Virus record (IMG/VR): IMGVR_UViG_3300033485_000002
Span: 1 to 64,000 of that record
Length of the DNA stretch: 64,000 nucleotides
Source: a virus
Strand: one strand, 5' to 3'
In this document: piece by piece, positions 44,087 through 60,342 of the stretch
Layout: each line of letters opens with the position of its first letter
Numbering within the stretch: the first letter of the stretch is position 1
Program-made: the position numbers and the translations under genes
Notes under the pieces: model-generated
Databases searched by the model: none
The model's input: the letters and a program-made list of their open reading frames with translations, nothing else
Told to the model about the DNA's origin: nothing

Positions 44087-45129
44087 TGGGTAGGGCCATC
44101 CGTCCAAACGTGCTGGAGAGGCTCCTGGACAAGGTGTGGCCCGATCACAGGGTGGAGAAGGATGGCACCGAGCACATGGTCGAGTGCCCCTTCTGTGACA
44201 CGGATAAAGCCAAGTGCGCTGTGAACCCCGGAAAGGGCGTGTTCCAGTGCTGGGTGTGTACGGAGAAGGGACCGGTTCAGAAGCTGCTGTTCCATCTCCG
44301 TGACCTGAAGATCATCACCCAAGCGGACATAGATGCCGTGATGGTGGGCAAGGGTATCCCGGCACTTTCTGACGCCATCCAGGTATTGAAGCCAAAAGCA
44401 GCTAAGAAGAAAGAGCAGTATTGGAGTAACATCATCCCCTGCGTGTACCCGCCCCACACCCAGGAGCTGATGACTATGATGGCGCATAACACCCTGGAGG
44501 GTAGACTCCGTAGGGCAGCCATCGAGTACCTGAACAATCGAGGGGTAACGGACGAAAATATCAAGGAGTTCCGGCTGGCTCTCTGCACTGAGCTGGGGTC
44601 ACCGTACTATGGGCACATATTCTTCCCGGCATTGGGGAAGTGGGGTAGGCAGCTTACCTTCTGGACCACGAGGAGCATCCTTCCGAACCCGGAGCCGAAA
44701 AGCCTTCATGCAAGTGGCAAGTACTCGCGGTTTTCGGCGAAGCAGATCCTAATGAACGAGCATTTGGTTGTAGGTACAACGGTGGTTCTATGTGAAGGCC
44801 CGTTTGATGCTATCAGCATTATGAATGCCACCGGTTATCCTGCATGCCCGCTTCTGGGGAAGATCTTTCACGAGTATCAGTTCAACCTGTTGAAGGACGA
44901 GAAGAAGATCGAGCGGGTGTACGTTTGTTTGGACCCGGATGCCAGGGAATTCCAGGATAATATCACGCATAAGTTCACTAAACCGATCAAGACGTACGTG
45001 GTGTTGTTGGAAGGTGGAGACCCGAACGAGGTATCCCCGGAGACGTTGAGAGCCGCCTTTCAAGCGGCGGCTCCCTCAGCGAATGATCAGGTCTATCGTC
45101 AGTTTTCGAAGCTTCGTGAACGGGTTTAG
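44083..45129 (+). CDS. dnaG: DNA primase (Zn finger + TOPRIM)
   Basis: CPFC...CWVC, YLNNRG, CEGPFDA, CLDPDA, GDPNE. Confidence 0.92.
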   Translation: MMGRAIRPNVLERLLDKVWPDHRVEKDGTEHMVECPFCDTDKAKCAVNPGKGVFQCWVCTEKGPVQKLLFHLRDLKIITQADIDAVMVGKGIPALSDAIQVLKPKAAKKKEQYWSNIIPCVYPPHTQELMTMMAHNTLEGRLRRAAIEYLNNRGVTDENIKEFRLALCTELGSPYYGHIFFPALGKWGRQLTFWTTRSILPNPEPKSLHASGKYSRFSAKQILMNEHLVVGTTVVLCEGPFDAISIMNATGYPACPLLGKIFHEYQFNLLKDEKKIERVYVCLDPDAREFQDNITHKFTKPIKTYVVLLEGGDPNEVSPETLRAAFQAAAPSANDQVYRQFSKLRERV

Positions 45130-46586
45130 ACGTTAATGCCGCCCTTGAGCGCTGCTTGAGCGAGCTTTCGCTCTCTGGCTTTTTTGATCGCTTGGCTGGC
45201 TTTGTTGATTCCTTTGTCTGCGGCAGTCCAGGCTGCGGTATCGATGACTGTGCTGCGGACAAAAGGACTGCGGACGAACTTGCTGGCAGCGGCAATAACC
45301 GGGCGTCCGAATCGGGCAAGAATCCCTACTGCGGGTCCGATCTCGGTAAGGTTGGCCCTACGCTCGAAGGCAGAGGCATGCATGCGCCTCTTTCTGGTGA
45401 GGGCATTGACACCGGCATTGAGTGCCATACTTGTCCCGACTTCCTTAGCAACAGTTCGCACGATGGGTTTTGCTGCGAATCTGGTAGCAGCAGCGCGAAG
45501 TCCAGCTCCCAGGGCGACACGACCAGCAGCAGCAACAACTGGAGCGGCTACTAGGGGGTTTTCGGTGATGTCATCGGTGGCATCGATGTCGGCCATCAGT
45601 CCCATGCCTTGTGCTGCCCTTTTTGCCCCACTCCTACCCATGATGATCGGATTCCCTGTTGCTGCCCCTAAAGCCATCCGGATTTTACCCGCTTCATAGA
45701 TTCGGGCAGCGGCATTGATCACTGGATCCTCGATGTCATCACCAACAACGGTTTTTTTGGTGTTGGTCTTAGTCTTCTGGTTTAGCTTGATGGGACCGGC
45801 AGCTTTTGCGTTTTGCGTTCGGATTTTCCCCCCATCCTGACTCAGCATGAGAGCGGTGTGGGCCGTGTGTTGAGGGTGGAGTTTGGTATAGGCAGACCCA
45901 GCTTGGGGTTTCGCTTTTGCAGCTTCCATGATGTCCTCGTGAGTGGGCTTAGGTTTATGCGGTGTCTTAGCCCGGAAATGCCCGGTGCCAAGCTCTTGCT
46001 CCTGACCGAGTTGCTTTAACTTGGCGGCATATTCGGGGTCACGGCGAATCTTGGCTCGCATGGTCAGTTCGTGGGAGCCAACGTCAACGGCGGTTCTCTG
46101 GGCAGTCTGTGAGAGTGTTTCACCTGTCCATCTAAGTAAAGGGTGCCGAGAGAGCAGTCGCTTGGTTGCCCCTTTCAGGACACGGTATTTATGCCCACCG
46201 GGGAGGCTTTTGGCCCCAACACGGATATGTTGCAAAGCTCGCTTGGGCCACTTTTTCCATCGTTTGATCACGCCCGACCTGAGCATGACATCTTTCGGCC
46301 CCATCGGCCTTTCGTCTTCCTCAACTCGCCTACGATAAATCAAGGGAGCTTCCTCTTTAAAGCGCTTTTTGGCATAGCGCTTTTCCCGCCAGTCTACGTA
46401 CTTGTTGACACCCTTTTGACGGGTGTCTTCACCTTTTTGGATACCGATCATTTGGGCGGCTTGGACCGCAACACCCCCTGGATACGTGTTTTTGAAGGCT
46501 TCGGCTTGCCGTCTGAAGCCCCAATATAGCCCGTATGAGTCAGGTGTTTCGGAACCTTGGTGTTTTGGGCGTCCAGATGCAGGCAT
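45126..46586 (-). CDS. Basic Ala/Gly-rich protein, putative internal-head polyprotein
   Basis: TAGGAG RBS on the minus strand; K/R-rich amphipathic segments separated by I/L-x-E sites. Confidence 0.7.
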   Translation of the reverse strand: MPASGRPKHQGSETPDSYGLYWGFRRQAEAFKNTYPGGVAVQAAQMIGIQKGEDTRQKGVNKYVDWREKRYAKKRFKEEAPLIYRRRVEEDERPMGPKDVMLRSGVIKRWKKWPKRALQHIRVGAKSLPGGHKYRVLKGATKRLLSRHPLLRWTGETLSQTAQRTAVDVGSHELTMRAKIRRDPEYAAKLKQLGQEQELGTGHFRAKTPHKPKPTHEDIMEAAKAKPQAGSAYTKLHPQHTAHTALMLSQDGGKIRTQNAKAAGPIKLNQKTKTNTKKTVVGDDIEDPVINAAARIYEAGKIRMALGAATGNPIIMGRSGAKRAAQGMGLMADIDATDDITENPLVAAPVVAAAGRVALGAGLRAAATRFAAKPIVRTVAKEVGTSMALNAGVNALTRKRRMHASAFERRANLTEIGPAVGILARFGRPVIAAASKFVRSPFVRSTVIDTAAWTAADKGINKASQAIKKARERKLAQAALKGGINV

Positions 46587-46631
46587 ATCTGTCTCCTATC
46601 ACGTGTAATAAAGCGATTTTACCAATTGGGC

Positions 46632-46730
46632 TTCCGGGAGAGGTTTTTTGCGTCATACCGGAGCTGATTCTGGGAGTCCCAGAACCCGTTCTGGGACAGT
46701 TAAGTGCTTGAAAACACATCGTTTCTGGGA
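46632..46730. repeat. TTCTGGGA direct and inverted repeats
   Basis: Copies at 46668, 46689 and 46723; inverted copy at 46677; variant TTCCGGGA at 46632. Confidence 0.7.
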
Positions 46731-46762
46731 ATCTAGGAGCCATTATTTTGAAAAGCGTTTTA

Positions 46763-46798
46763 GGGGGGGTCGGGGCGGGGGGGTCGGGTAGGGTTGGG
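46763..46798 (+). other. G-quadruplex-forming tract
   Basis: G7-TC-G4-C-G7-TC-G3-TA-G3-TT-G3. Confidence 0.7.
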
Positions 46799-47072
46799 CA
46801 CTCGCGGAGAATCATTCAACACGCCTGAAAAGCCTATCGTGGCTTATGCTTTCTCAGGACGGGCGAGATGGTAGAGAATGGGCATAGGCACGGGAGCGCC
46901 CGCTCCCGCGTGTCAGAGAGATCCTCGGCTCTCTCTGCGTCTCTGCGTCGCATTTCCCCCGACTGCCACAACTGTGGGTGGTTCTGCTCCAAGCGCCGGG
47001 AATTCACTCCGGCCTGGGGGTGGGGTACGCCCACGCAACCGGCAACCTCGTTGCCAGAAGGAAAGGTCCGCT

Positions 47073-47495
47073 ATGACCAAGCGCCAGTCGTCCAAGTCCA
47101 CGAAGTCCAACGCGAACACCGCCGACCCCATCGTCCCGATCTACATGTACGTGACCCTGCTCGTGCTCACCCAGGGTGGTGAGTGGAAGCGGCACCAGGA
47201 CACCGTCAGCGACCTCAAGGCGATCCGCAACGCCTACCTGCCCACCGACCGCATCGACTGCTCGAAGGTGAAGGCGATGCTCGACGAGTCGCCCGGTGTG
47301 AAGATCGAGATGCCGCTGTCCCGTGAGGGTGTGGCCAACCTCGTCGCGAAGCTCGACGCCGTCCCGGTCACGTCGCTCGACGAGGCGGCGCGGCTGCTCA
47401 AGGCCAAGGCCCGCATCGAGCGGATGGTGGCCTACAAGTCGGCGGTGCCCGCCGTGTCGAAGGTCGTGCTCCGTGCCGGTTACGCCATCAAGTAG
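47073..47495 (+). CDS. First early-region hypothetical protein
   Basis: GAAAGG RBS, strong GC3 codon bias. Confidence 0.75.
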   Translation: MTKRQSSKSTKSNANTADPIVPIYMYVTLLVLTQGGEWKRHQDTVSDLKAIRNAYLPTDRIDCSKVKAMLDESPGVKIEMPLSREGVANLVAKLDAVPVTSLDEAARLLKAKARIERMVAYKSAVPAVSKVVLRAGYAIK

Positions 47496-47603
47496 ATACT
47501 CTCGAACCCCCCGCCGAGGGGGGGTTCTTCGAAGCCACTCAGCCCTGGGGTGGTTTCGGAGAACCCGCAACATCAACGCTCGGCTCAACGAAAGGGGTTG
47601 CCT

Positions 47604-47975
47604 GTGGCACAGAAATTCTATCAACGCATCGACTGGAACGGCGGAGGCGTGACGCACGTCTTCAAGCTGTTCCTCTGGACCATCGCCTTCGGGTGGTTCG
47701 GCAACTGCACCCCCCGGACGCTTCAATTCCAGCGCACGGGTCGCGTCCTGGAGATCGCCTACGTTCACAAGAACCTGCGGGACACCGTGCTGTGGTTCAA
47801 CCTCGGTCGGCACCGGTACGACGAGAATGGTAGGCGGCTCACGTACCGGTTCGCCTGGAACTCGGAGTGGATCGCCGGTCGGTGGGGGAAGTCTCTCGAA
47901 GATGAGGGGCCGTGCCCTCGTCACCCTGACGCCGTCATCTACGATGGGTGGCTCGGCTACCACCTGTGGGTTTGA
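47604..47975 (+). CDS. Hypothetical protein
   Basis: GAAAGGGG RBS + GTG. Confidence 0.7.
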   Translation: MAQKFYQRIDWNGGGVTHVFKLFLWTIAFGWFGNCTPRTLQFQRTGRVLEIAYVHKNLRDTVLWFNLGRHRYDENGRRLTYRFAWNSEWIAGRWGKSLEDEGPCPRHPDAVIYDGWLGYHLWV

Positions 47976-47976
47976 A

Positions 47977-48037
47977 GGCGAAACGGGGCGAAAGCCCCGT
48001 TGTACCGGGTGGTTCCCGGTACCTGATGAGCCAGCCG
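47977..48037 (+). ncRNA. Type II hammerhead ribozyme
   Basis: GGC-GAAA-CGGGGC(GAAA)GCCCCG-U-U-GUACCGGG(UGGUU)CCCGGUAC-CUGAUGA-GCC: full conserved core and all three stems. Confidence 0.92.
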
Positions 48038-48067
48038 CTCGACTTCGTCTTTGAAAGGGGTATGCCT

Positions 48068-48454
48068 ATGTCCGTTCCAGGGTATCCGGTCGTGTACTCG
48101 ACCGAAGAGGACAGCGACAAGGGCGTCAAAGTCCATTGCGCTGTCTGCGGTCGAGACTACAAGGGGGATTCCCCCCACCAAGCGTACGGTTGCGCGTCGT
48201 CCATCGACAACGGTCAGATCTCCGGGGGCTACGGTTCCGTCGTCGCCGATTTCACCATCTTCAATATCGTGCAGGACTTCGGAGTCACCCAAGGCGACAT
48301 CTGCGACGAGTGCATCCTCAACCTCTTCGACGCGGGCAAGATCATCCACGTCAAGAACGAGTTGCCCGAGGACAGCGAGCGCCCGTTCAACTCGAAGTAC
48401 TATCGCCAGTATCTCGACAGCGTCAAGCACGAGATCGAGTTCTACGGGAACTAG
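48068..48454 (+). CDS. Hypothetical Zn-binding protein
   Basis: GAAAGGGG RBS; CAVC...CDEC. Confidence 0.75.
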   Translation: MSVPGYPVVYSTEEDSDKGVKVHCAVCGRDYKGDSPHQAYGCASSIDNGQISGGYGSVVADFTIFNIVQDFGVTQGDICDECILNLFDAGKIIHVKNELPEDSERPFNSKYYRQYLDSVKHEIEFYGN

Positions 48455-48465
48455 GGAGCTGCATC

Positions 48466-48750
48466 ATGGCACTCCCTCTGACCGAGGAACTTGGTGACCT
48501 GAAGCTGCGCGAGTTGTACGAGGCGCTGAAAGCGCTCGTGTATCGCGACGAGTACTGCACCGACAACGAGCATGGTATCGCGAACTACGTCCTCGAACAC
48601 GGCCCGACGCGCATCCACCTGTACCGCTACTTGGGGGGCGTGACCTTCGTCCTCACCTTGACGTACACCCCGATCGGCGGGCCGCAGCGCGTCTTAGAAT
48701 TCGTTGACCAAGTGGAGGACGGCCAGTTCTTCATGCTCACTTCGCTGTAA
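48466..48750 (+). CDS. Hypothetical protein
   Basis: GGGAG RBS, codon bias. Confidence 0.65.
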   Translation: MALPLTEELGDLKLRELYEALKALVYRDEYCTDNEHGIANYVLEHGPTRIHLYRYLGGVTFVLTLTYTPIGGPQRVLEFVDQVEDGQFFMLTSL

Positions 48751-48824
48751 ACCCTCGATAGCGTCGAGTACCGCGTATCTTGTTGATCTATCAGCAGTTT
48801 CCAACTCAGGAAAGGGGACATACT

Positions 48825-49634
48825 GTGTCCAATCTGACTCCCAGTCGCATCGCCTGCTTCGACCGCTTCGCGGAGCGAGTCGAAGACTTCCTCAACGCGA
48901 ACTCCAAGCCCTCGAAGAACGGTCACCGCTCCCTCATCGCGGCGATCTTCGAGGTCATCGTGACCATCTGCTTCCGACCCACCGCCCTCGCGCCGGTCAT
49001 GCACAACGGCGTGTCGCTCCAGGCCACGGGCATGACCAAGCGGCGCTTCCAGCTCCGCGCCCCCAAGACGCTGCCGAACGGCAAGCCCAACCCGAAGGCC
49101 GACATGCTGATCTTCGATCGGGCGACCGGCAACCCGGTGTACTCGAAGGCCCACGCCCAGATGTACACCGCCAAGGCGTTCCGGGAGTGGCGGGCAACGC
49201 AGACTGGTCTCAAGACCCCCGAGACCGTGTACGTCGTCAACTGGGACAAGGTCTCCCAGGCCAAGCAGCAGGGTCTCGCCAAGTCCTTCCCGCCCAAGCG
49301 CGACGGCAAGCCCGAGTTCGTGCCCCAGGTCGTCGGCATCCTGCTCCGGAAGGGCAACAAGCCCGCCAAGGGCGAGAAGCGCCACTCGTGGCAGCGGCTC
49401 ATGCTCGTCGTGGTCGGCAAGTACGGCGAGTTCGGCACCTGCGTGATCCCGAACGCCGCCGTCTGGCAGTCGGGCTGCGTCAAGGCGCTGGGTGAGGCGA
49501 TCGGTTGCCCCGAGGCCGACATCCCGGTCTGGGACGACGAGAACGAGGCCCAGTTCGCCGCCCAGTTCTCCAAGGCCGCCAACGCGGTGATGGAGGCGCA
49601 GCGGCACGGCATCGACCTCGACTTCGACTTCTAG
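48825..49634 (+). CDS. Hypothetical basic protein with an acidic DLDFDF tail
   Basis: GAAAGGGG RBS + GTG; very strong GC3 bias. Confidence 0.75.
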   Translation: MSNLTPSRIACFDRFAERVEDFLNANSKPSKNGHRSLIAAIFEVIVTICFRPTALAPVMHNGVSLQATGMTKRRFQLRAPKTLPNGKPNPKADMLIFDRATGNPVYSKAHAQMYTAKAFREWRATQTGLKTPETVYVVNWDKVSQAKQQGLAKSFPPKRDGKPEFVPQVVGILLRKGNKPAKGEKRHSWQRLMLVVVGKYGEFGTCVIPNAAVWQSGCVKALGEAIGCPEADIPVWDDENEAQFAAQFSKAANAVMEAQRHGIDLDFDF

Positions 49635-49644
49635 TCGAGCTAAC

Positions 49645-49673
49645 GAGGGGGCCTCGTGGCCCCCTCACTTTTT
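49645..49673 (+). terminator. Intrinsic terminator
   Basis: GAGGGGGCC-TCGT-GGCCCCCTC then ACTTTTT. Confidence 0.75.
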
Positions 49674-49721
49674 CGAAAGCTCTTGGCAATGGAGCCGAGC
49701 GCTTTCGAGAAAGGGGATCTT

Positions 49722-50024
49722 ATGGCCTTGACCAAGGACTTCGACAACGTGCCCAGGAAGTTCTTCGGGGGGAGCCGCACCCCGAAGGCGGTCAGTGTGG
49801 ACCTCTGTGTCCACCCCGAGGACCGCAACCGCCCGCTCCAGGTCAGCAGCATTCTCTGCCGCACCTACAAGGGGCGGGTCACCAAGGACGAGCTGCGACG
49901 GATCAAGTTCGCCCTGGACGAGGTCCAGGCGGTGCTCGTCATGAACAAGCTTCAGGGCCAGAGGCTGACCGCTATGGCGTGGTTCCCCCGCTACGGGTGG
50001 CACGTCGTGGCGAGGAAGGACTAG
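49722..50024 (+). CDS. Hypothetical protein
   Basis: GAAAGGGG RBS. Confidence 0.7.
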   Translation: MALTKDFDNVPRKFFGGSRTPKAVSVDLCVHPEDRNRPLQVSSILCRTYKGRVTKDELRRIKFALDEVQAVLVMNKLQGQRLTAMAWFPRYGWHVVARKD

Positions 50025-50026
50025 CC

Positions 50027-50224
50027 ATGCCCGAGCCGGAGCTGACCGTCGAGAAGCTGCTCGACTTCTTGGAGGACGTGCTCTTCACGTTGATCGTAGA
50101 CGAGCACCTGCACCCCGATCACGATCCGGATTGCGGGTGCGTCTACGGGCACATCAAGAAGGTGCTCGGCCCCGAGCGCACGGTGAGGATCGTGGCCGAT
50201 GCCAAGCGCTGCATGAGCGAGTAG
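50027..50224 (+). CDS. Hypothetical protein
   Basis: AAGGA RBS; H/C cluster. Confidence 0.6.
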   Translation: MPEPELTVEKLLDFLEDVLFTLIVDEHLHPDHDPDCGCVYGHIKKVLGPERTVRIVADAKRCMSE

Positions 50225-50305
50225 GACTGTTCATACAACGCCCCTACATGGGGCGTTGTCTGGATCAGCTCCCCCTGGTCCAAATACAATCTTGGAGGTG
50301 CCGAT

Positions 50306-50512
50306 ATGGCATTCAAGGGGACCGTCAGCGTTCGCATGGGCCGGAACTGGATCGAGACCACCGAGCAGGTGCGCCCGGTGACCAGCCAGGACCGGGTCAA
50401 GTTGGGCTACGCCAACTTGGCGCTGCACCAGTTCAACGCGGTGCGCGAGGTGTCCAGCACGGAGAAGGACATCCTCACCCCCTGCAACACCAACCCTGAG
50501 TCCCTCAAGTAG
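50306..50512 (+). CDS. Hypothetical protein
   Basis: GGAGG RBS. Confidence 0.7.
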   Translation: MAFKGTVSVRMGRNWIETTEQVRPVTSQDRVKLGYANLALHQFNAVREVSSTEKDILTPCNTNPESLK

Positions 50513-50676
50513 GGACTCATGTTAGCGCCTATCCGCCTGGATAGCTCTCGCTTCGGGTTCTATCTGATCTGGGCACAGCCTGTCACGGCGTGGGGCGGTC
50601 GGGGGAATCCCCATCCACATCCACGTGATCGCGTGGTAGACTGTGCCTGTCCGACTCTTCACCTCGGGAGGTGATT

Positions 50677-51417
50677 ATGCCTGCGATCGAGGAACCGGAC
50701 CCCCAGAAGGTCTACGCCAGCGGAGGACTCACGTCCTACGGCGTAGTCCAACTCATCATCAACCAGCTTCTGGGGGGGCTGCGAAAGCCCGACCTGGAAA
50801 TCCTCGCCAGCTTCGTCAACCACCGCCTCGCCAACTTCCCCTGTCACTGGAAGAAGGACTTCGCGACCATCGAGGATGTCTTCACCCTGTGGGAGAAGGT
50901 CGCCTTGGAGCAGGGGAACACCGTTTCGGTCATCAAGAAGTTGCGTGACCGCACCGGCTGGGGGCTGCGGGAAGCCAAGGAAGCCACCGACGCCTACAAG
51001 GCGGCACTGGCGAAGAAGGAGATCGATCCTCTGACAAGGGAGATCCCCTTGTGGATGGACGAGGACGAAGACCCCAACGACTGTATCACCGCGAAAGAGC
51101 GGCGGCTGATCTTCGAACAGATGCTGAAGGGTGACAGCACATGGGCGCTGATGAACCCCGAAGGCATCGACCAGATCGCCCAATGCGAGTGCCTCAACAG
51201 CATTCGGGAGCGGCACCAGAGTTCGTCATGGTCTCTGATCGACGCCAAGATGCTGTTCGACGCGGTCGCCAGGGACATTCGCGCCGGGAAGATCTCGAAA
51301 CCCGCCGTGCAACTGGTCGAAGAACCCGAGCCGGAAGACCTCGACGCTGCCATCCGGAGCGGAGAGATCGAAGGCGTGATCGAGTTCAAGGAACTCGACG
51401 GACAACTACTGGAGTAG
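50677..51417 (+). CDS. Protein with a ribosomal bL12 C-terminal-like motif
   Basis: VSVIKKLRDRTGWGLREAKEATD resembles the L7/L12 CTD K..VIK.VR..TGLGLKEAK..V. Confidence 0.7.
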   Translation: MPAIEEPDPQKVYASGGLTSYGVVQLIINQLLGGLRKPDLEILASFVNHRLANFPCHWKKDFATIEDVFTLWEKVALEQGNTVSVIKKLRDRTGWGLREAKEATDAYKAALAKKEIDPLTREIPLWMDEDEDPNDCITAKERRLIFEQMLKGDSTWALMNPEGIDQIAQCECLNSIRERHQSSSWSLIDAKMLFDAVARDIRAGKISKPAVQLVEEPEPEDLDAAIRSGEIEGVIEFKELDGQLLE

Positions 51418-51419
51418 CC

Positions 51420-51680
51420 ATGAGCACCTTTCGGATCGAGCAACTGGAACCTCTCCCCCCGGACGAGAACCCGTTCCTGCACGACCGGTTCCACATGGGC
51501 AACTCCCTGGGGAGCAACGTCATGCTCATGTACCGGGGTTCCGGGGAAGACCAGCCTGCGGACTACCTTATCGTCGTTCATATCCCGACCGGCCAGCGGC
51601 TGAAGATCACCTTCCCGGAGGCCAGACCGGACATTCTCGACGGTGGGGTCATGAGCAGGCTGTTGGGAGGTGTGTCGTGA
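51420..51680 (+). CDS. Hypothetical protein
   Basis: GGAG RBS, coupled. Confidence 0.65.
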   Translation: MSTFRIEQLEPLPPDENPFLHDRFHMGNSLGSNVMLMYRGSGEDQPADYLIVVHIPTGQRLKITFPEARPDILDGGVMSRLLGGVS

Positions 51681-51988
51681 GAGCGATCAGGAACCCGAAG
51701 CTCGTCACTCAGGCGATTCAGGAGGCGATGCTCATTGTCTCCGATCTGCGGGTGGGGCAGCTTCTGGCCAACGCCATGCAGTGGTACAACGAGCGGGAGG
51801 GCAAGCACTCCCGATTCATGGACAAGCATGGCTCACCGGACCTGTACTACGTTGAAGACATCGAACTTGCCAACATCATCCAGATGTACGTGATGTCCCT
51901 TGACTGCCCCAAGTGCGCGGGCAAGGGTGGCAAGCACTTTCTCGATTGCCCCGTGTGGGAGCACAACCAGAAGAAGGAGGCAGAGTGA
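51677..51988 (+). CDS. Hypothetical protein with C-terminal CxxC..H..C
   Basis: GGAGG + GTG; DLRVGQL, DLYYVED..L. Confidence 0.7.
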   Translation: MRAIRNPKLVTQAIQEAMLIVSDLRVGQLLANAMQWYNEREGKHSRFMDKHGSPDLYYVEDIELANIIQMYVMSLDCPKCAGKGGKHFLDCPVWEHNQKKEAE

Positions 51989-51989
51989 T

Positions 51990-52244
51990 ATGAAGACCAA
52001 GCAAGAGCGTCAGGACGCGGCGAAGCAGTTCATCGTGGAGCGCAGCAAGCGTTCCCCGAAGGAGCAGTGGCAGCGGCTGGACGCGAAGTTCGGTGTCTAC
52101 GAGGGTGCCCGCAAGGAGCGGAAGCGTCTGCTGAAGCAGATGGGTGCTCCGGTGTGCGAGTACTGCGAGGGCAAGGGGTGCAGTCGCTGTCATTACTCCG
52201 GGTACTTCGTCAATTTCGCGTACGGGGAGGCCCCAAATGGCTGA
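51990..52244 (+). CDS. Hypothetical protein with a DnaJ-like CxxCxGxG finger
   Basis: AGGAGG RBS; CEYCEGKGCSRC..SG. Confidence 0.7.
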   Translation: MKTKQERQDAAKQFIVERSKRSPKEQWQRLDAKFGVYEGARKERKRLLKQMGAPVCEYCEGKGCSRCHYSGYFVNFAYGEAPNG

Positions 52245-52521
52245 GTACATCAACACCTACGAGGCGTGCTCCGTCCACAAAAATGGTCATTCGGGCCATT
52301 GTGAGAAGTGCGAGACGGAGAACGTGCGTGGCTTGCTGCGCGAGGTGGTCAACTCCGAGATGATGGAGCCGGATGAGTTCGGCAACATCACGCTTTTCGT
52401 CAAGCCGGAGCTGTGGGGCAAGATCGTGGTGCTCCGCACTGTCCCGGTTCCTGTCCGCACCGCCTACGAGATGACGGATGCGGCCACGGCCACCGGGATG
52501 TATGACCACGACACGGAGTGA
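52237..52521 (+). CDS. Hypothetical protein
   Basis: GGAGG RBS; C..H...CEKC. Confidence 0.65.
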   Translation: MAEYINTYEACSVHKNGHSGHCEKCETENVRGLLREVVNSEMMEPDEFGNITLFVKPELWGKIVVLRTVPVPVRTAYEMTDAATATGMYDHDTE

Positions 52522-52525
52522 GACC

Positions 52526-52606
52526 ATGAAGTGGATACTCATTCTGTTGCTGTTGACGTTCTTCGGCATGAAGTGGCTCGACCGGCTGTCCCACCCAAGA
52601 AGGTGA
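52526..52606 (+). CDS. Small membrane peptide (26 aa)
   Basis: GGAG RBS; MKWILILLLLTFFGMKWLDRLSHPRR. Confidence 0.5.
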   Translation: MKWILILLLLTFFGMKWLDRLSHPRR

Positions 52607-52610
52607 AGCC

Positions 52611-52985
52611 ATGAGTCGGGAACCATTTATCGACCTGTCTGACAAAGATGAAGTCATGGCCTCAATCGGGTGGAGAGACAAGGAGATTGCCCGCCTGCAA
52701 GCAGAGGTGATCGCGTTTCGGGTTCTCTATGGAGAGGAGCAGACCAAGACAAAGCGCCTGCAAGCGTTGGTGGACGCGGCGCGACCCGCTGCTCAGTTCT
52801 GCCTGTGGTGCTGCGAGTACTTTTTCGAGGGCAACGACATCTGCGGTGGAGATGCTCAGGACAAGATGGTCGAGCTGGGGCTGCTCGAACAGAGACCGAC
52901 GCCGGAGGATTCCGAGTGGTATGGCGAGTGTGACTTTCTGTACTTCCCCACCAAGGCTTTCGAGGCTCTGGGGGGTGAGTCGTGA
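52611..52985 (+). CDS. Hypothetical protein
   Basis: In operon; DICGGDAQDK.VELGLL motif. Confidence 0.7.
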   Translation: MSREPFIDLSDKDEVMASIGWRDKEIARLQAEVIAFRVLYGEEQTKTKRLQALVDAARPAAQFCLWCCEYFFEGNDICGGDAQDKMVELGLLEQRPTPEDSEWYGECDFLYFPTKAFEALGGES

Positions 52986-53146
52986 GTCAACGTTCTGCGT
53001 TAGAGAACGATGCACTCATTCGAAAATTGATCGCCTATGCCAAGGGGGATTGCTACAGGCTTACGGCGATCATTCGCAGGTTGGGTGCAACCGGGAAGAC
53101 TCCCAAGTGGAAGGAAGTTGTCCGCGCCCTGGGAGGTGGGTTATGA
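52982..53146 (+). CDS. Small hypothetical protein (54 aa)
   Basis: GTGA and ATGA overlaps with both neighbours. Confidence 0.55.
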   Translation: MSQRSALENDALIRKLIAYAKGDCYRLTAIIRRLGATGKTPKWKEVVRALGGGL

Positions 53147-53673
53147 GCCATCCGTTGCTCACCATGTGCCAGGAACTCATCGACGAGAACCTGCGTCTCA
53201 AGAGCGACCTCAACATGATGTTCTTCGAGAAGGAGGCGCTCCAGCAGGCGCTGGAAGCGAGTGAGGCGTTGCTCCATCAAGAGCAACTTCGGAACGAGAA
53301 GGTGGTGCTTGACCTCAGTGGTATGCTTGGCCATACCTTGCAAAAGATCGAGCAGTTGCAGGAAGAACTGCATCAGGCACAGCTTCGAGCGGACTCGATG
53401 AAGTTCAGGATCATCGACCTGGAGAACGAGGCGCGATATCCCGAGATCCGAGCGGCCAAGGACGCCGAGTTCCTGAAGAAACGCTGCACCGAGTGTGAGG
53501 AGGAAGGCTGTCCTGGCCTTATCCAGTGCCCCAAGTGTGGGTACAAGGAGCACGGTGCGAGTGCTCTTACCCACGTTCAGGACCACGGCTACTGCCACGA
53601 GTGTCTGGTGGCATGGCAATACGGGGAGGATAAATGGCAACACAACGGGGAGGATGAAGATGACTCTGTTTGA
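53143..53673 (+). CDS. Coiled-coil plus Cys-cluster protein
   Basis: GGAGG RBS; CTEC, CPKC, CHEC. Confidence 0.7.
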   Translation: MSHPLLTMCQELIDENLRLKSDLNMMFFEKEALQQALEASEALLHQEQLRNEKVVLDLSGMLGHTLQKIEQLQEELHQAQLRADSMKFRIIDLENEARYPEIRAAKDAEFLKKRCTECEEEGCPGLIQCPKCGYKEHGASALTHVQDHGYCHECLVAWQYGEDKWQHNGEDEDDSV

Positions 53674-54052
53674 GCGGGCGATGAATGACTTGGCCGAGAA
53701 CCTCAACCACGTCATCAACTACAACTGGGAGCAGGAAATCGAGGATTTCGAGCAGCAGCTTTTCGAGGAAAATGCGGATAGCAACCACGTTTTCGTCAAG
53801 CTCGTCAAGCTGGAAAACGCACGGCGCGTTCTGGTAGGGGGACCGATGCCCGAGGAACCGCCTCGCAGGTTGGGTGAGTACCTGTGGAACGAGCTGCTGA
53901 ACACGTCGCAGTACTTCGAGTGCGACAACTGCCACCACATCGACTCGAAGCTCGATCCGATCCCCCCGACCTACTGGCAGTACGTGGAAGGCGGGGAGAT
54001 CGCTCCAGCCGGATTCTGCGTCAGGTGCGGCTGTGCCGCATTTCCGGTGTAG
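53660..54052 (+). CDS. Hypothetical Zn-ribbon protein
   Basis: GGAGG RBS; CDNC...CVRC. Confidence 0.7.
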   Translation: MTLFERAMNDLAENLNHVINYNWEQEIEDFEQQLFEENADSNHVFVKLVKLENARRVLVGGPMPEEPPRRLGEYLWNELLNTSQYFECDNCHHIDSKLDPIPPTYWQYVEGGEIAPAGFCVRCGCAAFPV

Positions 54053-54063
54053 CAGGAGGTGTT

Positions 54064-54276
54064 ATGGCCCGGTATACGCAACCACGTAGCGACACCCCGA
54101 ACGAGGGCACCGGCCCGAACGAGCGGAAGTACGTTCCGAGGACGCTGACGAACTACGAGAAGTTCGCTCGGAACGGGGAGTTGCTTTGGCACTGTTCGCA
54201 TTGCGATGCGCTCAACCAGACCAACGCGAGAGCGTGCGCTCAATGCGGTGCTGACAGACGGCAGAACAAGCGGTGA
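54064..54276 (+). CDS. RanBP2-type zinc-finger protein
   Basis: W.CSHC...N......CAQCG. Confidence 0.7.
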   Translation: MARYTQPRSDTPNEGTGPNERKYVPRTLTNYEKFARNGELLWHCSHCDALNQTNARACAQCGADRRQNKR

Positions 54277-54539
54277 CCACCATGAGCATGATGGATTCGA
54301 GACTGGCTCAGCATGAGCGGGATCTTGAGTACCTGAAGCATGACGGGAAGAAGTGCCCGTTTTGCGGAGTGGTGGACTGCATCGTCATGACTGGTGAACT
54401 CCAGCATGAGGGCACGGCCATCTTCCAGGAAGTCAAGTGCGAGAAGTGCGCCACTCGATGGGTGGATTGCTACGAGCTGACGGGCATTTCGGCAATGGAA
54501 GATCTGGCAGAGCAGTCTGACTTTGACGAACAACTGTGA
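54273..54539 (+). CDS. Zn-ribbon protein
   Basis: CPFCG...CEKC..RW.D.Y.L. Confidence 0.7.
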   Translation: MTTMSMMDSRLAQHERDLEYLKHDGKKCPFCGVVDCIVMTGELQHEGTAIFQEVKCEKCATRWVDCYELTGISAMEDLAEQSDFDEQL

Positions 54540-54557
54540 CTTGGAAAGGAGCCTCGT

Positions 54558-54866
54558 ATGAGCAAGAGTCAGGTGACCAAGGGGACGGTCGTTCTGCGTC
54601 GGCACGAAGTCGAGGTGCTTCAACAGAGGTTGAACATCATCCCGGACCACGTGAACGGGATGCCGCTTCAGACCAAGGTGCGCCGGGGTGCCATCGAGCG
54701 CCGCCGTTTGTCCTTGGTCAAGGCCGACAAGCTCGCTCCGAACCTGCTGGCGAGCCAGGAGCTGTACCGGCTGTGCCAGTACATCAATGACGGCTTCAAG
54801 ACGGTGGGCTGGGCGATCCGTTCGACAGTCTCCGGTGACTACTTCGTCTACAGCGAGAAGTGGTGA
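54558..54866 (+). CDS. Hypothetical protein
   Basis: AAAGGAG RBS. Confidence 0.7.
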   Translation: MSKSQVTKGTVVLRRHEVEVLQQRLNIIPDHVNGMPLQTKVRRGAIERRRLSLVKADKLAPNLLASQELYRLCQYINDGFKTVGWAIRSTVSGDYFVYSEKW

Positions 54867-55147
54867 TGCGACTCTTTCCGGCGAACATTCTCATCTGTGA
54901 GGGTGATTCACTCGTGCGGAGGGATACGACAACCCCCATGGGCTTCAAGGGGGAGTGGATCATCGTTCCCAAGGAAGACTTCGATGCTGCCCGGAAGTTG
55001 TTCACGGATCTCCAGGACGCGATCATCATGTTGAGCCGAAACGTGGACGCCGAGGACGACTACTATCGCCGGAAGGCGATCGTCCCGGAGGTGAATCAGC
55101 TTCGCCTTCTTGTGGGACTGCCGGTACTCGGAACGTCAACGCTATGA
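54866..55147 (+). CDS. Hypothetical protein
   Basis: TGATG coupling. Confidence 0.6.
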   Translation: MRLFPANILICEGDSLVRRDTTTPMGFKGEWIIVPKEDFDAARKLFTDLQDAIIMLSRNVDAEDDYYRRKAIVPEVNQLRLLVGLPVLGTSTL

Positions 55148-55404
55148 AGACGTATATCGCGATCGAAGTCGTGACTCGGGGTGGTCAGTCGTACCGAAGT
55201 GACGAGCAGGAACTCACCCCCGAGGTCGAAGAGGCCATGGCCGGGTGGAAGGAGATCACGAGTCGTTTGCGGGAGGTTTCGGACTTCAGCATCGTCGCTA
55301 CCCATGTGTGGGGCGAAACGACATACCACTTTCATCCGGACGACATTTCCGTTGTCGCCATTCTCAAAATCCGAGAAGAATGGAGCAAAGCAATGAAGCG
55401 GTAG
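55144..55404 (+). CDS. Hypothetical protein
   Basis: ATGA coupling. Confidence 0.6.
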   Translation: MKTYIAIEVVTRGGQSYRSDEQELTPEVEEAMAGWKEITSRLREVSDFSIVATHVWGETTYHFHPDDISVVAILKIREEWSKAMKR

Positions 55405-55462
55405 CTATGTCAAGAAGTGCTTGAACCTATCGTCAACTTCTCACTCAATAAGGAGATTTCAG

Positions 55463-56086
55463 ATGGCAACGAAGCGCACCTATCGCAAGACGGCCCCGAA
55501 GACCCAGACCAGCCAGCAGGCTGCCCCTCGGGACTATGATGTCCGGTATGTCCCGGACTTTGTGCTCGGGCAGATCTCGGGAGCGAAGAACGGCAAGTCC
55601 GGTCGCCCGGAGCTGTTCAGCCTGCGGACCTACAAGGTCCGGACCAAGGAAGGCGAGACCGTCGTCGGCAGCTACCTCGTGTTCGGTGGGGTGCCGCCCC
55701 AGAAGCTGCACGAGAAGCTCGACAGCCTGGGCTTCAAGGTCCGCCGCCGTCCCGCTTCCTGGACCGACAAGCAGAACGTCGTCCACGAGGTCGGCAGCAA
55801 CGACCGGGACTGCTACGCGGTGTACTACAACACCGAGCCGTCCATGACTGAGGAGCAGGCCGAGTACATCGGTGGGTTGCTGGCGAAGACCACGAAATAC
55901 GTGGCCGACAATGGCCGCACCTTCCTGCTCCCGTCCTGGGACGCCGTCGAAGCCGACTGGGGAAGCCGGGACAACTGGCTCCAGATCTGCACCGTGGCCG
56001 AGGAGGAGCACTCCCCCGCATCGGGCGGCAACGGTGACGAAGAGACGCCGGGGGTGGACCTCAAGGCCCTCGACGAGATGTTCTAG
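55463..56086 (+). CDS. Hypothetical protein with basic N-terminus and acidic LDEMF tail (possible ssDNA-binding)
   Basis: AAGGAG RBS; strong GC3 bias. Confidence 0.65.
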   Translation: MATKRTYRKTAPKTQTSQQAAPRDYDVRYVPDFVLGQISGAKNGKSGRPELFSLRTYKVRTKEGETVVGSYLVFGGVPPQKLHEKLDSLGFKVRRRPASWTDKQNVVHEVGSNDRDCYAVYYNTEPSMTEEQAEYIGGLLAKTTKYVADNGRTFLLPSWDAVEADWGSRDNWLQICTVAEEEHSPASGGNGDEETPGVDLKALDEMF

Positions 56087-56092
56087 GCGACC

Positions 56093-56317
56093 ATGTCCAA
56101 GTCGGTGACGCTGCTCGATTTCCTAACCGAGGAGCAGATCACCAAGGCTGACCGTATCGTGGGGGAAACCCCCGATATGGGGCAGGCTGCGAAGCGTCTG
56201 CGAGCGGAGGTCATCGAGCCGAACATGGCCGAGATCGACCGCAAGCTCGGGCAGGAGAACGATCCTGCGTTCATGGCGTACGCGACTCTGTACGTCTTGC
56301 TGCGGCTACGGCAGTAG
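56093..56317 (+). CDS. Hypothetical protein
   Basis: In operon. Confidence 0.7.
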   Translation: MSKSVTLLDFLTEEQITKADRIVGETPDMGQAAKRLRAEVIEPNMAEIDRKLGQENDPAFMAYATLYVLLRLRQ

Positions 56318-56324
56318 CTACTCT

Positions 56325-56360
56325 GGGTGGGGGCTATCCTTCGGGGTAGCCCCCATCTTT
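56325..56360 (+). terminator. 15-bp UUCG-capped hairpin (terminator or processing site)
   Basis: GGGTGGGGGCTATCC-TTCG-GGGTAGCCCCCATCT. Confidence 0.7.
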
Positions 56361-56378
56361 GTCTTGGAAGGGAGCCTT

Positions 56379-56786
56379 ATGGACGAAGCAGCAGCACGGC
56401 AGCTCATCCTCGATACGCTGGCGAAGATGGACCAGATGGAAGAACTCCGGAAGAAACAGACGGAGACGATCGCCGAACTGCGGCGTGCGCTCTCCCACAA
56501 GTATTTCTGGCCGGAAGCATACGCGGGGCGAGCTGTCCCTAAAATCTTGTTCGTCGGAGCGGGTAAAAGCGACAAGTTCACCATGACCATGACGGATCTG
56601 GAGACGTTGGAGATGCGTAGCTTCACGTTCCGGGTTCGGCACACGACTAAGGAACAATCACAGTTCATCCTAACGGGGCGAGTGGGCGGTTACGCTCGTA
56701 TCGAGTTGGTGGAACCGCAAGGGCTGGAAATCCCGGTTGATATCATGCTTGAAGTCGTGAAACCGTGGCTCAATCAGTGCTTCTGA
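56379..56786 (+). CDS. Hypothetical protein
   Basis: AGGGAG RBS. Confidence 0.7.
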   Translation: MDEAAARQLILDTLAKMDQMEELRKKQTETIAELRRALSHKYFWPEAYAGRAVPKILFVGAGKSDKFTMTMTDLETLEMRSFTFRVRHTTKEQSQFILTGRVGGYARIELVEPQGLEIPVDIMLEVVKPWLNQCF

Positions 56787-56796
56787 GGAGGCAACT

Positions 56797-57963
56797 ATGT
56801 ACATGAAAGACGTGCGAGTCGGTCAGACGTATGCGTATGCCGAGGACTACAGCCGGAAGTGCCGGTTCAACGTCAACGAGGTGACGGTGCAGCCGGTCGT
56901 CATCACGGACAAGTCCGTGCAGGAGGTCTACACGACGGACAACTGCGGGAGGTTGATCCCGACTCGCAAGACCATCCTGAAGGGGAAGCTCTATGGCATC
57001 CCGGCCACCGACATGCGGGCGCTCGACCTGGACCTCGTGGAGAAGGACAACCAGAAGCTCATCCAGGTGGTGCAGGTTAAGCCCGAGGATATCGTGTCCC
57101 CGTGGGAACCGGAAGTCGAGCGGGCACGGTATCGTGCGGCGATCAAGGTGAAAGCCATGAACGCCCAACGGTATCTTGGGATTCTGGCCTGTGCGGTGCT
57201 GGATCAGATGCGACTTCAGTCATCTTTCGTCGTTCAGAGCAACCCATCAGTTCTTCTCGATATCTGGCCCCTGACCCTTTCTGGCAGCTCCCCCTTCATG
57301 TACTCGAAGGATGAGGAAGTCACCCAGCTTCTGCGGCATCAACTGAAGTGGTCGCTGTTCTCGGGGCTGGTTGCCTTCAACCGTACAGAGGATGACTACC
57401 TTTCGTTTGCTGTGACGATGCAAAAGCCTTCGGAGGGATGGCCCAAGAAGGAAGCAGCTACTACTGATGTGGCCGCTTCAATGACCACGTACAACTACGT
57501 GAAGGTCTTTGGTGTCAATCTGGCGATGCTGTTTGGAGCCACGTACTGCAAGCCGCCCGCACAGCCGCCCAAGAGCTACCGCAAGAAGAACGTAGCTCTG
57601 TGGACAGCGAAAGACAGGGCTGCGAACGAGGTTTACTTCGACAAGAAGCTTCTCCCGTGGTTCGAGCGTGTTCGTGCCCGGTTGGCGAAGAGCACGCAGG
57701 AGGAGCGGCATCATGTCGTGGAGCTGGGGCTGAATCAGCTTCGACAGCAGGTGATGGATTTCACCGGTTTCTCCGGACGGGCTGCCAAGGATATCCCGGT
57801 GGGTAAGAACATCCCGATGTTCAACTTCACCTTCTCTTCGGATGTTTGGCAAAAGGAGTTGAAGGCACGGTCTGAGTCAACACTTGCGCTGCCGAGTGCT
57901 GCCCAACTTCAGACACTCAAGTCTTCGGAGCTGAGATACACCGCGTTCTTCCTGTCGAGGTGA
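56797..57963 (+). CDS. Hypothetical protein (388 aa)
   Basis: AGGAGG RBS. Confidence 0.75.
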   Translation: MYMKDVRVGQTYAYAEDYSRKCRFNVNEVTVQPVVITDKSVQEVYTTDNCGRLIPTRKTILKGKLYGIPATDMRALDLDLVEKDNQKLIQVVQVKPEDIVSPWEPEVERARYRAAIKVKAMNAQRYLGILACAVLDQMRLQSSFVVQSNPSVLLDIWPLTLSGSSPFMYSKDEEVTQLLRHQLKWSLFSGLVAFNRTEDDYLSFAVTMQKPSEGWPKKEAATTDVAASMTTYNYVKVFGVNLAMLFGATYCKPPAQPPKSYRKKNVALWTAKDRAANEVYFDKKLLPWFERVRARLAKSTQEERHHVVELGLNQLRQQVMDFTGFSGRAAKDIPVGKNIPMFNFTFSSDVWQKELKARSESTLALPSAAQLQTLKSSELRYTAFFLSR

Positions 57964-57966
57964 CGT

Positions 57967-58209
57967 ATGCCCTGGACCGAGCAGGAGATCAAGGAAATTG
58001 AGCGTACCTATCAGGCACCGGAAGGGTTCACCTGGGTGTGCCTGATGTGCGGGAAAACCGCACGGAACCGTGACCAGTTCATGGACGTTTCGTGCTTCAT
58101 CCACGCGGTGGTCATCAAGAACACCGATCTGAAACGGGATGAGACCGGGGAAGTCATTGCCGTGCAAGAGGTTGCGTTTGATCCACAAACGGATCGGATT
58201 CGGGCGTAG
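57967..58209 (+). CDS. Small Zn-binding protein
   Basis: WVCLMCGK...D.SCF.HA. Confidence 0.7.
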   Translation: MPWTEQEIKEIERTYQAPEGFTWVCLMCGKTARNRDQFMDVSCFIHAVVIKNTDLKRDETGEVIAVQEVAFDPQTDRIRA

Positions 58210-58217
58210 GAGGCATC

Positions 58218-58394
58218 ATGCCTGAGACCCCTGAGCAGGAGTTGGCCCGGTTGAGGAACGCTGTCCGAGAGCTGCCGAATTTTCTTCGGTTGGAGATCCC
58301 GGACATCCTGATGGATGAGCATGGTTCTCAATGCGATTGCGACGTGTGTCGTACTTTCGGATACGCGGCTGAGCAGGCTGAGGACGAGGAGTAG
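58218..58394 (+). CDS. Small hypothetical protein
   Basis: AGGAGG RBS; H..QCDCDVC. Confidence 0.6.
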   Translation: MPETPEQELARLRNAVRELPNFLRLEIPDILMDEHGSQCDCDVCRTFGYAAEQAEDEE

Positions 58395-58397
58395 GTC

Positions 58398-58571
58398 ATG
58401 CGTAACCTTCAGGGTATCCCGCGAGAGTGGTTGACTCAGGCCCACCTGACCCCCAAGGAGCAGCGTGAACTGGAGCAGCGTGAGAAGAAGCAGCTCCGGG
58501 AGCGGTTGAGCCGTGAAGAGATCTACGCCAAGGAAGAGCCTGACTTCGATACGTGGCAAGCGGAGAAGTAG
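58398..58571 (+). CDS. Small charged protein
   Basis: AGGAG RBS; fills the gap. Confidence 0.55.
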   Translation: MRNLQGIPREWLTQAHLTPKEQRELEQREKKQLRERLSREEIYAKEEPDFDTWQAEK

Positions 58572-58814
58572 ATGACCTCTCAAGAAAATCCGCTTTGGTT
58601 GAGTGATAGCATCCAGTTCCCCCGGCTGTTGGCTGAGATCCATGCTATTGATATGCCTCAAGATATGCTGGATCAGCTTTGCCTAAACATGGATTTGGAG
58701 CCGTTCCAAATCGGAGAGATTCTCAGGCGAGCGACAGAGGCATTTGACAGGATCAAAGAGGAATTTTGTCCGTCGTCCCTAGACACTACCAAGAGGATCA
58801 ACCCTGATGGCTAA
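58572..58814 (+). CDS. Hypothetical protein
   Basis: W..DSIQFPRLLAEI motif. Confidence 0.7.
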   Translation: MTSQENPLWLSDSIQFPRLLAEIHAIDMPQDMLDQLCLNMDLEPFQIGEILRRATEAFDRIKEEFCPSSLDTTKRINPDG

Positions 58815-59124
58815 GTATAGCCCTCTACAGCATGAGCATCTTGAAAAAGAGACCAAAGCACAGCTCATTCGGCGTATACAAGAGCTGAGAAAAATGGACA
58901 TTGCCAAAGAGGAAACAATAGGCAGTCTCCATGATCAGCTTTGGCAGCAACATGACCAGAAGCGGGATTTTGAGTGGTTGATGCGCACAAGGGAAGATAA
59001 GATTCGTGATGTTTGTGCCATTTTCATCCATCTGGATGTGAAACGGGTTGCCCCAACATCACTTGTACTCATTCAACGTCTACTGCAAGAAGCCCTGGAC
59101 TGGCAACAGAAAAAGGCAGAGTGA
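58807..59124 (+). CDS. Coiled-coil hypothetical protein
   Basis: GAGGA RBS. Confidence 0.65.
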   Translation: MAKYSPLQHEHLEKETKAQLIRRIQELRKMDIAKEETIGSLHDQLWQQHDQKRDFEWLMRTREDKIRDVCAIFIHLDVKRVAPTSLVLIQRLLQEALDWQQKKAE

Positions 59125-59603
59125 TGGCTAACAGCTACGAGCAGACGTGCTTTGGGATCGAGAACGTGACCAATAAGGAGTATGCGTGGATCAAGGAGAT
59201 GACCCGTAAACTCCAAGATGTTGAGTCACAGGAGGAGGGTATCCCTGAGCTGGATGACTTCGTCTCCCATGGGTGGACCGGGTGGAAGCTCGTCACCATG
59301 GTCACGGGCATCCAGGGAGAGGCTATCACGGAAGATAACGTCCGAGGTGAAGTCTACTTCGACATCGAGGAAGGCTTCGACAACGACGCCCTGATTGCTC
59401 TGCTCCAGGGGTTCCTGAAGAAGTTCCGTCCCGATGGCGTGATCGGCTTCGAGATCGCCTACACCTGTTCGAAGATGCGCCCCGATGAGTTTGGTGGTTC
59501 GGCAATCGTCATCACTGCCGATGAAGTTCAGTCGTTCGGTACGGCAGCGTGGTTGCTGGATCGCCTCGGGGAGTACAGAGCACAGGGGAAGGTGCGGGCG
59601 TAG
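59124..59603 (+). CDS. Conserved-looking hypothetical protein
   Basis: TGATG coupling; C-terminal AYTCSKMRPDEFGGSA motif. Confidence 0.7.
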   Translation: MANSYEQTCFGIENVTNKEYAWIKEMTRKLQDVESQEEGIPELDDFVSHGWTGWKLVTMVTGIQGEAITEDNVRGEVYFDIEEGFDNDALIALLQGFLKKFRPDGVIGFEIAYTCSKMRPDEFGGSAIVITADEVQSFGTAAWLLDRLGEYRAQGKVRA

Positions 59604-59604
59604 T

Positions 59605-59850
59605 ATGCCCTTCGTGCTCATCTTCGAGCATCGTTTTGGGAAAGACGTGTACGTGGCCCACACTCGGGAAGCCATCGAGAAGCAACGAGAGTATCTTGCC
59701 CATCAATGGCGGGACGAGTACGATATCCCGGAGGAAATCCCGGATGCTGTCCTAGCCGAGAGCTGGTGCGAGTACACGCATGGTACAGAGGGTTTCGAGA
59801 TTCGTGACATCGACTTTGTCGAGGAGGCACCTGACGGGGTTACAGACTGA
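59605..59850 (+). CDS. Hypothetical protein
   Basis: In operon. Confidence 0.65.
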   Translation: MPFVLIFEHRFGKDVYVAHTREAIEKQREYLAHQWRDEYDIPEEIPDAVLAESWCEYTHGTEGFEIRDIDFVEEAPDGVTD

Positions 59851-60089
59851 TGCGTATCTATCTCAAAGGCGGGGATGTCGTCGCTGCTAGCGCAGACTTC
59901 GAGATCGTCACGGATCAGGGGGAACATACCTTGTGGAGTATGGGCGTCCCTGATGGTGAAGTGATCCGTTATTGGCACCCCCAAGAAGAGAAGTGGTACG
60001 ACTGCCGGTGGGATCTTGAAACCGACAGTCCAAACTATGGCCAGCTCTACTACGAGGGTCTGGAGCGCGGGGATGAGTCCGTTCTATAG
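59850..60089 (+). CDS. Hypothetical protein
   Basis: TGATG coupling. Confidence 0.6.
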   Translation: MRIYLKGGDVVAASADFEIVTDQGEHTLWSMGVPDGEVIRYWHPQEEKWYDCRWDLETDSPNYGQLYYEGLERGDESVL

Positions 60090-60294: not shown

Positions 60295-60309
60295 AAACCG
60301 TGATATCAT
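60281..60309 (+). promoter_or_regulatory. Sigma70 promoter with extended -10
   Basis: TTGACA-17-(TGn)TATCAT upstream of the AAA+ gene. Confidence 0.75.
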
Positions 60310-60342
60310 CAACCGTAACTGGCACTTAGACGGAGGCCAGAC

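Follow-up and report, generated by a model that had tools for sequence, protein, structure and literature searches.

We examined the first 64 kb (hereafter the window) of a linear IMG/VR record of 168,260 bases, the completeness of which is estimated at 77%. Its genes include those for a tail sheath, baseplate hub, DnaB-like helicase, and DnaG-type primase, and the tail sheath is 30-49% identical to the sheaths of cultured myoviruses; given this gene content and the divergence of the tail sheath, the record was taken to be a large uncultured myovirus. The four tRNA genes of the record lie outside the window, at L005 11531-13768 and L006 8510-8581. For phage RNA-repair enzymes that might act on the ends left by RNA cleavage, a search of the record (77% complete) with the RtcB family (PF01139) returned no match; a search with the T4 Rnl1 family (PF09511) returned no match in the record and none in any control genome, and is therefore uninformative.

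Nearly all genes of the window are encoded on the + strand. The single minus-strand gene occupies either 45126-46451 or, with an alternative start, 45126-46586, and is followed by a non-coding region of 0.5-0.6 kb and by a run of small + strand genes that begins at 47073. Several sequence features were noted within this divergent non-coding region (46452-47072), including a palindrome, TTCTGGGAG/TCCCAGAA, at 46668-84, two further TTCTGGGA copies (46689-96 and 46723-30), and, at 46763-98, a G-rich tract containing numerous runs of three to seven G (G3-G7). The palindrome, repeats, and G tract between 46668 and 46798 may be regulator sites or G-quadruplex-forming DNA. It was also noted that the G+C content shifts from approximately 47-55% across the structural and replication modules (1-46000) to 58-62% across the small-gene region (46000-64000), where the ribozyme described below is located and GC3 reaches 0.8-0.95. 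This shift suggests a mosaic origin or a different codon usage of the small-gene module.

The ribozyme fills the 92-nt spacer between two small open reading frames (ORFs) of the + strand, 47604-47975 and 48068-48454, both of which carry a GC3-rich coding signature. The upstream ORF encodes 123 amino acids from a GTG start preceded by a GAAAGGGG ribosome-binding site, ends in a TGA stop codon at 47973-75, and has a codon-position GC of 0.59/0.45/0.82, typical of the genuine genes of the region. Its product had no Pfam or PHROG match. The downstream ORF encodes a small Cys-rich protein of 128 amino acids belonging to an uncharacterized family, and its ribosome-binding site, likewise GAAAGGGG, lies at 48053-60. 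Remote relatives of this protein (n = 89) share the invariant residues C24, C27, C42, G53, G56, S57, D61, C79, D80, and C82, and its AlphaFold model is confident, with a pLDDT of 84; no match to the downstream protein was found in the PDB by Foldseek, nor in Pfam or PHROG. An association of the ribozyme with this gene family was considered and rejected, since no hammerhead lies near four remote relatives of the gene, which occur in seven loci.

Two further hairpins delimit the surroundings of the ribozyme on the + strand. The first (47504-47527) is a strong, G/C-rich hairpin of 9 bp (-20.4 kcal/mol) that comes after a gene with its stop at 47495 and is followed by UUCUUCG, not by a canonical T-run. 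Because a proper T-run is absent, this hairpin may act as an attenuator or RNA stabilizer and not as a terminator. The second (49645-49666) is terminator-like, with a T-run following the hairpin (-24.2 kcal/mol, z = -4.4), and probably marks where the transcription unit of the ribozyme ends. From these two hairpins, the ribozyme probably lies inside a transcript that spans approximately 47.5-49.7 kb. An initial annotation of the locus had described the flanking genes and their transcript as early. This label was not retained: the flanking genes had no family match, the window is encoded almost wholly on one strand, and no sigma-70-like promoter of the + strand was found in 45-51 kb, so that neither early nor late timing can be assigned.

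The site at 47976-48040 (+) is a complete type II hammerhead ribozyme, a class that is already known, and it is a real element and not a chance resemblance. The Rfam covariance-model search placed a full Hammerhead_II (RF02276) match on these positions. Reading from its 5' end, the element opens with the 5' strand of stem II, GGC (C11.1 = 47979), and the core nucleotides G12 A13 A14 (47980-82), together covering 47977-47982. The stem III hairpin follows at 47983-48000, formed by 7 bp between ACGGGGC (47983-89) and GCCCCGU (47994-48000) around a GAAA loop, with the A15.1-U16.1 pair (A47983-U48000) closing the stem. Because the hammerhead core numbering places position 17 at 48001 (U17, the last nucleotide of the triplet GUU) and G1.1 at 48002, the cut is predicted between 48001 and 48002. 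Stem I (48002-48022) is a perfect hairpin of 8 bp, GUACCGGG (48002-09) with CCCGGUAC (48015-22), enclosing the loop UGGUU (48010-14). The core strand CUGAUGA (C3-A9, 48023-29) and the 3' strand of stem II, GCC (48030-32; G10.1 = 48030), then occupy 48023-48032, and the element ends in the 3' tail AGCCG (48033-48037), the pseudoknot partner of loop I.

All 13 core positions were found intact, comprising C3 U4 G5 A6 U7 G8 A9, G12 A13 A14, the A15.1-U16.1 pair, and an H nucleotide at position 17, and both stem I (8 bp) and stem III (7 bp) are free of mismatches. The arrangement is that of the type II permutation, in which loops cap stems I and III while the 3-bp stem II is left open, its strands being contributed by the 5' and 3' ends of the element. 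Loop I and the tail can form five pairs, two of them G-U, where the family requires at least four. The initial annotation had proposed precisely such a complete type II hammerhead, and every element that it named agrees with our reading base for base, including the G10.1-C11.1 pair (48030 with 47979) and a predicted pseudoknot between 48010-14 and 48033-37 that is kept in relatives. Its placement of the ribozyme between two genes also holds, both flanking ORFs being on the + strand, as does the gap of 1 nt between the upstream stop (TGA, 47973-75) and stem II, which starts at 47977.

The automatic gene call in public assemblies starts the downstream gene at AUG 48026, inside CUGAUGA, which yields a protein of 142 amino acids. 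No ribosome-binding site was found before AUG 48026, and the resulting 14-residue extension is not covered by the remote relatives; for both reasons, ATG 48068, which stands behind GAAAGGGG as does the start of the upstream gene, is the more likely start. For one other assembly, it was noted that the caller had chosen a minus-strand shadow ORF of 157 amino acids at the site of the downstream gene.

We assessed the statistical support for the ribozyme by searching the entire window with the full set of 4227 Rfam families at their gathering thresholds. Hammerhead_II was the sole match in the window, covering model positions 1-66 of 66 at 47976-48040 (+) with a score of 44.9 bits against a cut-off of 37 bits (E = 6e-06, counting both strands of the entire window and every family). 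The search with Rfam hammerhead models that had been suggested as a check thus placed RF02276 above its gathering threshold. A strict descriptor, which demanded the core, the NUH rule, a stem I of at least 5 bp, a stem III of at least 4 bp, and a stem II of at least 2 bp, found one site in the 168,260-base record, namely 47976-48040, whereas 300 dinucleotide-preserving shuffles of the window yielded no site. No second ribozyme of any Rfam class was detected in the 168,260-base record at gathering thresholds, and relaxed Rfam thresholds revealed no other ribozyme in 44-64 kb and no other Rfam family near the site. Clusters of ribozymes flanking single genes or short blocks were accordingly not seen, the ribozyme being a single copy in 168,260 bases. 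Clustering is frequent among type II hammerheads but is not a defining trait.

We sought relatives of the locus at both the nucleotide and the protein level. When 7.5 kb around the ribozyme (44500-52000) were compared by blastn with 50,697 phage records, only the ribozyme itself was matched, at 81-84% identity, in the Streptomyces phages phiScoe1 (OQ672741) and Jevington (PP978834). Searches of IMG/VR found no relatives of the two flanking proteins, the primase, or a 284-amino-acid downstream protein, and word-indexed searches over 5.8 billion proteins recovered, for each query including the upstream protein, nothing beyond its own cluster. A contig that encodes those clusters (L110) proved identical in sequence to the window, and further contigs behind the same protein clusters have the gene spacing of the window.

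Relatives of the ribozyme itself were collected with a subtype pattern made up of the GGC/GCC stem II, the core, and the AGCC tail, which matched 100 IMG/VR loci, many holding 2-5 copies. Among 93 unique, well-formed relatives, a stem I of 8 bp was the commonest length (48/93) and UGGUU the commonest loop I (24/93), while the length of stem III ranged from 5 to 8 bp. With its 3-bp stem II, 8-bp stem I, UGGUU loop, and tail pseudoknot, the copy in the window therefore has the commonest geometry of the family.

Covariation was then assessed by aligning 82 sequences of the subtype, namely the window copy and 81 relatives from viral contigs that are not orthologues of the locus. Of the cells assigned to stems, 91.7% were paired, compared to 73% after shuffling and 27-45% when the partners were slid, and compensatory cells with changes on both sides numbered 258 against 66 expected. 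Changes on both sides were observed at all eight stem I pairs and at four of the six stem III pairs, and the covariation score reached 0.456, compared to 0.126 for shuffled and at most 0.11 for slid alignments. The cells of stem III were 99% paired in the relatives. Within its own stem I, the window copy has rare compensatory U-A and A-U pairs where most relatives show G-C and G-U. The central G-C pairs of the pseudoknot were near-invariant in the 82 sequences, and its U-G/C-G pair varied on one side only. A check by covariation in related phages, which had been proposed for the locus, was therefore answered in part: stems I and III covary across the 81 relatives of the family, while a divergent copy of the locus was not found in the collections searched.

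The layout around the ribozyme was also compared across 161 copies of the subtype. A same-strand open frame ends no more than 200 nt upstream in 157 of the 161 copies, with a median gap of 4 nt from stop to ribozyme and a gap of 0-3 nt in 67 copies. Downstream, a start codon with a preceding ribosome-binding site follows in 144/161 copies, and this start lies 11-30 nt past the AGCC tail in 132 of these 144 (median gap, 22 nt). The corresponding gaps in the window are 1 nt from the stop codon to the ribozyme and 31 nt from the ribozyme tail to the start codon at 48068. The order of stop, ribozyme, ribosome-binding site, and start in the window matches that of approximately 160 relatives, and the ribozyme lies in a short spacer between genes of the same strand, as is the case for phage intercistronic hammerheads.

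One core position sets the window copy apart from its family. Position 17 is U in the window copy, while 91 of 93 relatives have C there; of the other two, one has U and one has A. U17 (GUU) is cut more slowly than C17 (GUC) in minimal constructs. The nucleotide nevertheless satisfies the NUH rule, being an H and not a G, and GUU is among the listed cleavable NUH triplets (PMC3138052).

We consider it probable, though with some reserve, that the + strand polycistronic phage mRNA cleaves itself at 48001/48002 by means of the type II hammerhead. Upon transcription, stems I and III would form hairpins, the core would then be closed by the 3-bp stem II together with the pseudoknot of loop I with the 3' tail, and the RNA would be cut between U48001 and G48002. 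The upstream message, which holds gene 47604-47975, would thereby carry the stem III hairpin and a 2',3'-cyclic phosphate at its 3' end. The downstream message, extending over the genes from 48068 to the terminator near 49666, would begin with a 5'-OH on the stem I hairpin, its 5' end lying 66 nt ahead of the start codon. As a result of such cleavage, the two halves of the operon would gain separate stability and translation. That cleavage takes place in vivo, that the ends are of this kind, that the hairpin protects the 5'-OH end, and that the fate of the mRNA is affected are what we infer from knowledge of the family.

The RNA could also adopt a competing fold. Thermodynamic prediction pairs the segment 48045-48066 (+), which holds the ribosome-binding site GAAAGGGG, with 47955-47981 in a helix of 21 bp, comprising 47971-81 with 48045-55 and its extension, 47955-65 with 48056-66. 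The strand at 47971-81 contains the stop codon, the 5' strand of stem II, G12, and A13, and on the other side the predicted helix covers the downstream ribosome-binding site and ends 2 nt short of the start codon. From this arrangement, an alternative reading arises in which the ribozyme is gated or slowed by translation. The helix would make the 5' core strand and the ribosome-binding site of the downstream ORF inaccessible until a ribosome ending the upstream ORF or loading on the downstream one opened it, allowing cleavage and downstream translation. U17 would slow or tune the rate, and the element would be a switch, not a constitutive cutter.

We regard this translation-gated reading as unlikely, and the folding predictions that favor it carry their own qualifications. 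In a 251-nt context, stems I and III are retained in the predicted minimum-free-energy fold as well as in the centroid fold, and stem II gives way to the helix. Nearest-neighbor folding prefers other partners for both strands of stem II, giving a probability of approximately 0.97 to the alternative pairs and of approximately 0 to stem II. Folding of 47966-48066 gave -43.4 kcal/mol for the alternative versus -32.5 kcal/mol for the active secondary structure, in an energy model that leaves out tertiary contacts, ribosomes, and the pseudoknot, which amounts to approximately -3.4 kcal/mol when taken as a duplex by itself. The competing helix is predicted to dominate once the 3' end of the transcript reaches approximately 48052-55. 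However, the same model gives stem II a probability of approximately 0 even before the competitor strand has been transcribed, and it therefore generally under-predicts the 3-bp stem II.

The rarity of the helix was gauged within the record and within the family. Its duplex energy of -24.5 kcal/mol falls in the top 0.9% of 23,978 same-geometry segment pairs in the record and in the top 2.5% of such pairs within 46-66 kb, a significance that is modest (p of approximately 0.01-0.03), the helix boundaries having been picked after the fold had been seen. The pairing of the downstream flank with the 5' core strand was then compared across 127 relatives, which had a mean of -7.3 kcal/mol versus -8.7 kcal/mol for controls and a median rank of 0.78. 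The competing helix was rejected as a family trait, the relatives having less flank complementarity than the controls. The window copy is an outlier in this comparison, at -12.6 kcal/mol and a rank of 0.025. The hammerhead family thus seems to avoid such competitor pairing, whereas the window locus has one; this outlying position speaks for a translation-gated element at this locus, and the absence of the helix from the family speaks against it.

It is distinctly improbable that the motif is an inactive relic or look-alike that no longer cleaves, or whose cleavage is without consequence. Such a state would be consistent with the occurrence of a single copy in 168 kb, whereas relatives often form arrays, and with the unusual U17 and the predicted competing structure. 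Decay would, however, be expected to strike the stems or the core first, and here the core is intact at 13 of 13 positions, the stems are perfect, and the geometry is the commonest of the family. The placement from stop to ribosome-binding site is also as precise as in the relatives, and a chance origin is excluded by the shuffles. That the ribozyme is part of a mobile gene cassette, or serves to process a non-coding RNA in place of punctuating mRNA, is hardly credible, despite its nearest sequence relatives lying in unrelated Streptomyces phages of approximately 50 kb: the cassette was rejected since no flanking repeats were found, tblastn of nine neighboring proteins against 102 hammerhead-bearing loci gave no match, and no ribozyme adjoins the four remote relatives of the downstream gene, and for a non-coding RNA no other Rfam family lies nearby, nor is there room for another RNA, because the ribozyme and the ribosome-binding site fill the 92-nt spacer.

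Self-cleavage of a polycistronic message, the reading that we prefer, is also the standard one for sites of this class. The biological role of phage hammerheads in general is, to our knowledge, still unproven. Natural type II hammerheads were reported from bacteria, prophages, and metagenomes by Perreault et al. 2011 (PMC3088659), who found them active in vitro and in E. coli and found the pseudoknot of loop I with the 3' tail to be needed for fast cleavage. In the same work, hammerheads were seen to flank prophage genes and were proposed to process long phage transcripts (PMC3088659). The window copy resembles these type II ribozymes in its closed stems I and III, its short and open stem II, its invariant core, and the same pseudoknot, and it likewise sits between same-strand phage genes and passes the RF02276 cut-off. 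Unlike them, it is a single copy in a myovirus of at least 168 kb and not part of an array, it has U17 where C is usual, and a predicted helix reaches its downstream ribosome-binding site. The class, the pseudoknot, and the position between phage genes had all been described by 2011, and the window copy adds a well-formed but unexceptional case.

The closest comparison is with phiScoe1, Jevington, and the approximately 100 IMG/VR contigs of the subtype, with which the window copy has in common an identical GGC/GCC stem II, core, and AGCC tail. The 81-84% identity of the ribozyme to the two Streptomyces phage copies is accompanied by the same layout of stop, ribozyme, and ribosome-binding site. 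These two phages differ from the window in being siphophages of approximately 50 kb that carry five (phiScoe1) and six (Jevington) copies within 4-5 kb, and, outside the ribozyme, the DNA of 44500-52000 has no similarity to any phage record searched. It was noted that the right-arm hammerheads of phiScoe1 (L002 1545-3599) and Jevington (L003 1279-3603) lie between small hypothetical genes, and that none of these five and six type II hammerheads is annotated in the GenBank records. A further parallel is offered by RiboJ-type insulators, in which the 5' leader contains a ribozyme that cleaves itself, so that the RNA starts at a defined 5'-OH, with a hairpin next and the ribosome-binding site beyond it. 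Those insulators are engineered and derived from a satellite-RNA ribozyme, whereas the window element is natural and lies between two cistrons.

The only lead to something new at this locus is the competing helix, which is specific to the locus, together with U17. If the helix is functional, for which the present evidence is weak, the element would be a natural hammerhead coupled to translation, its cleavage serving as a readout of ribosome traffic. More broadly, these results indicate that type II hammerheads also occur singly in large myoviruses and not only as arrays in siphophages of approximately 50 kb. As a solitary copy in an operon bounded by the hairpins at 47504-27 and 49645-66, the ribozyme would offer a simple system for the effects of cleavage on the two halves of an mRNA.
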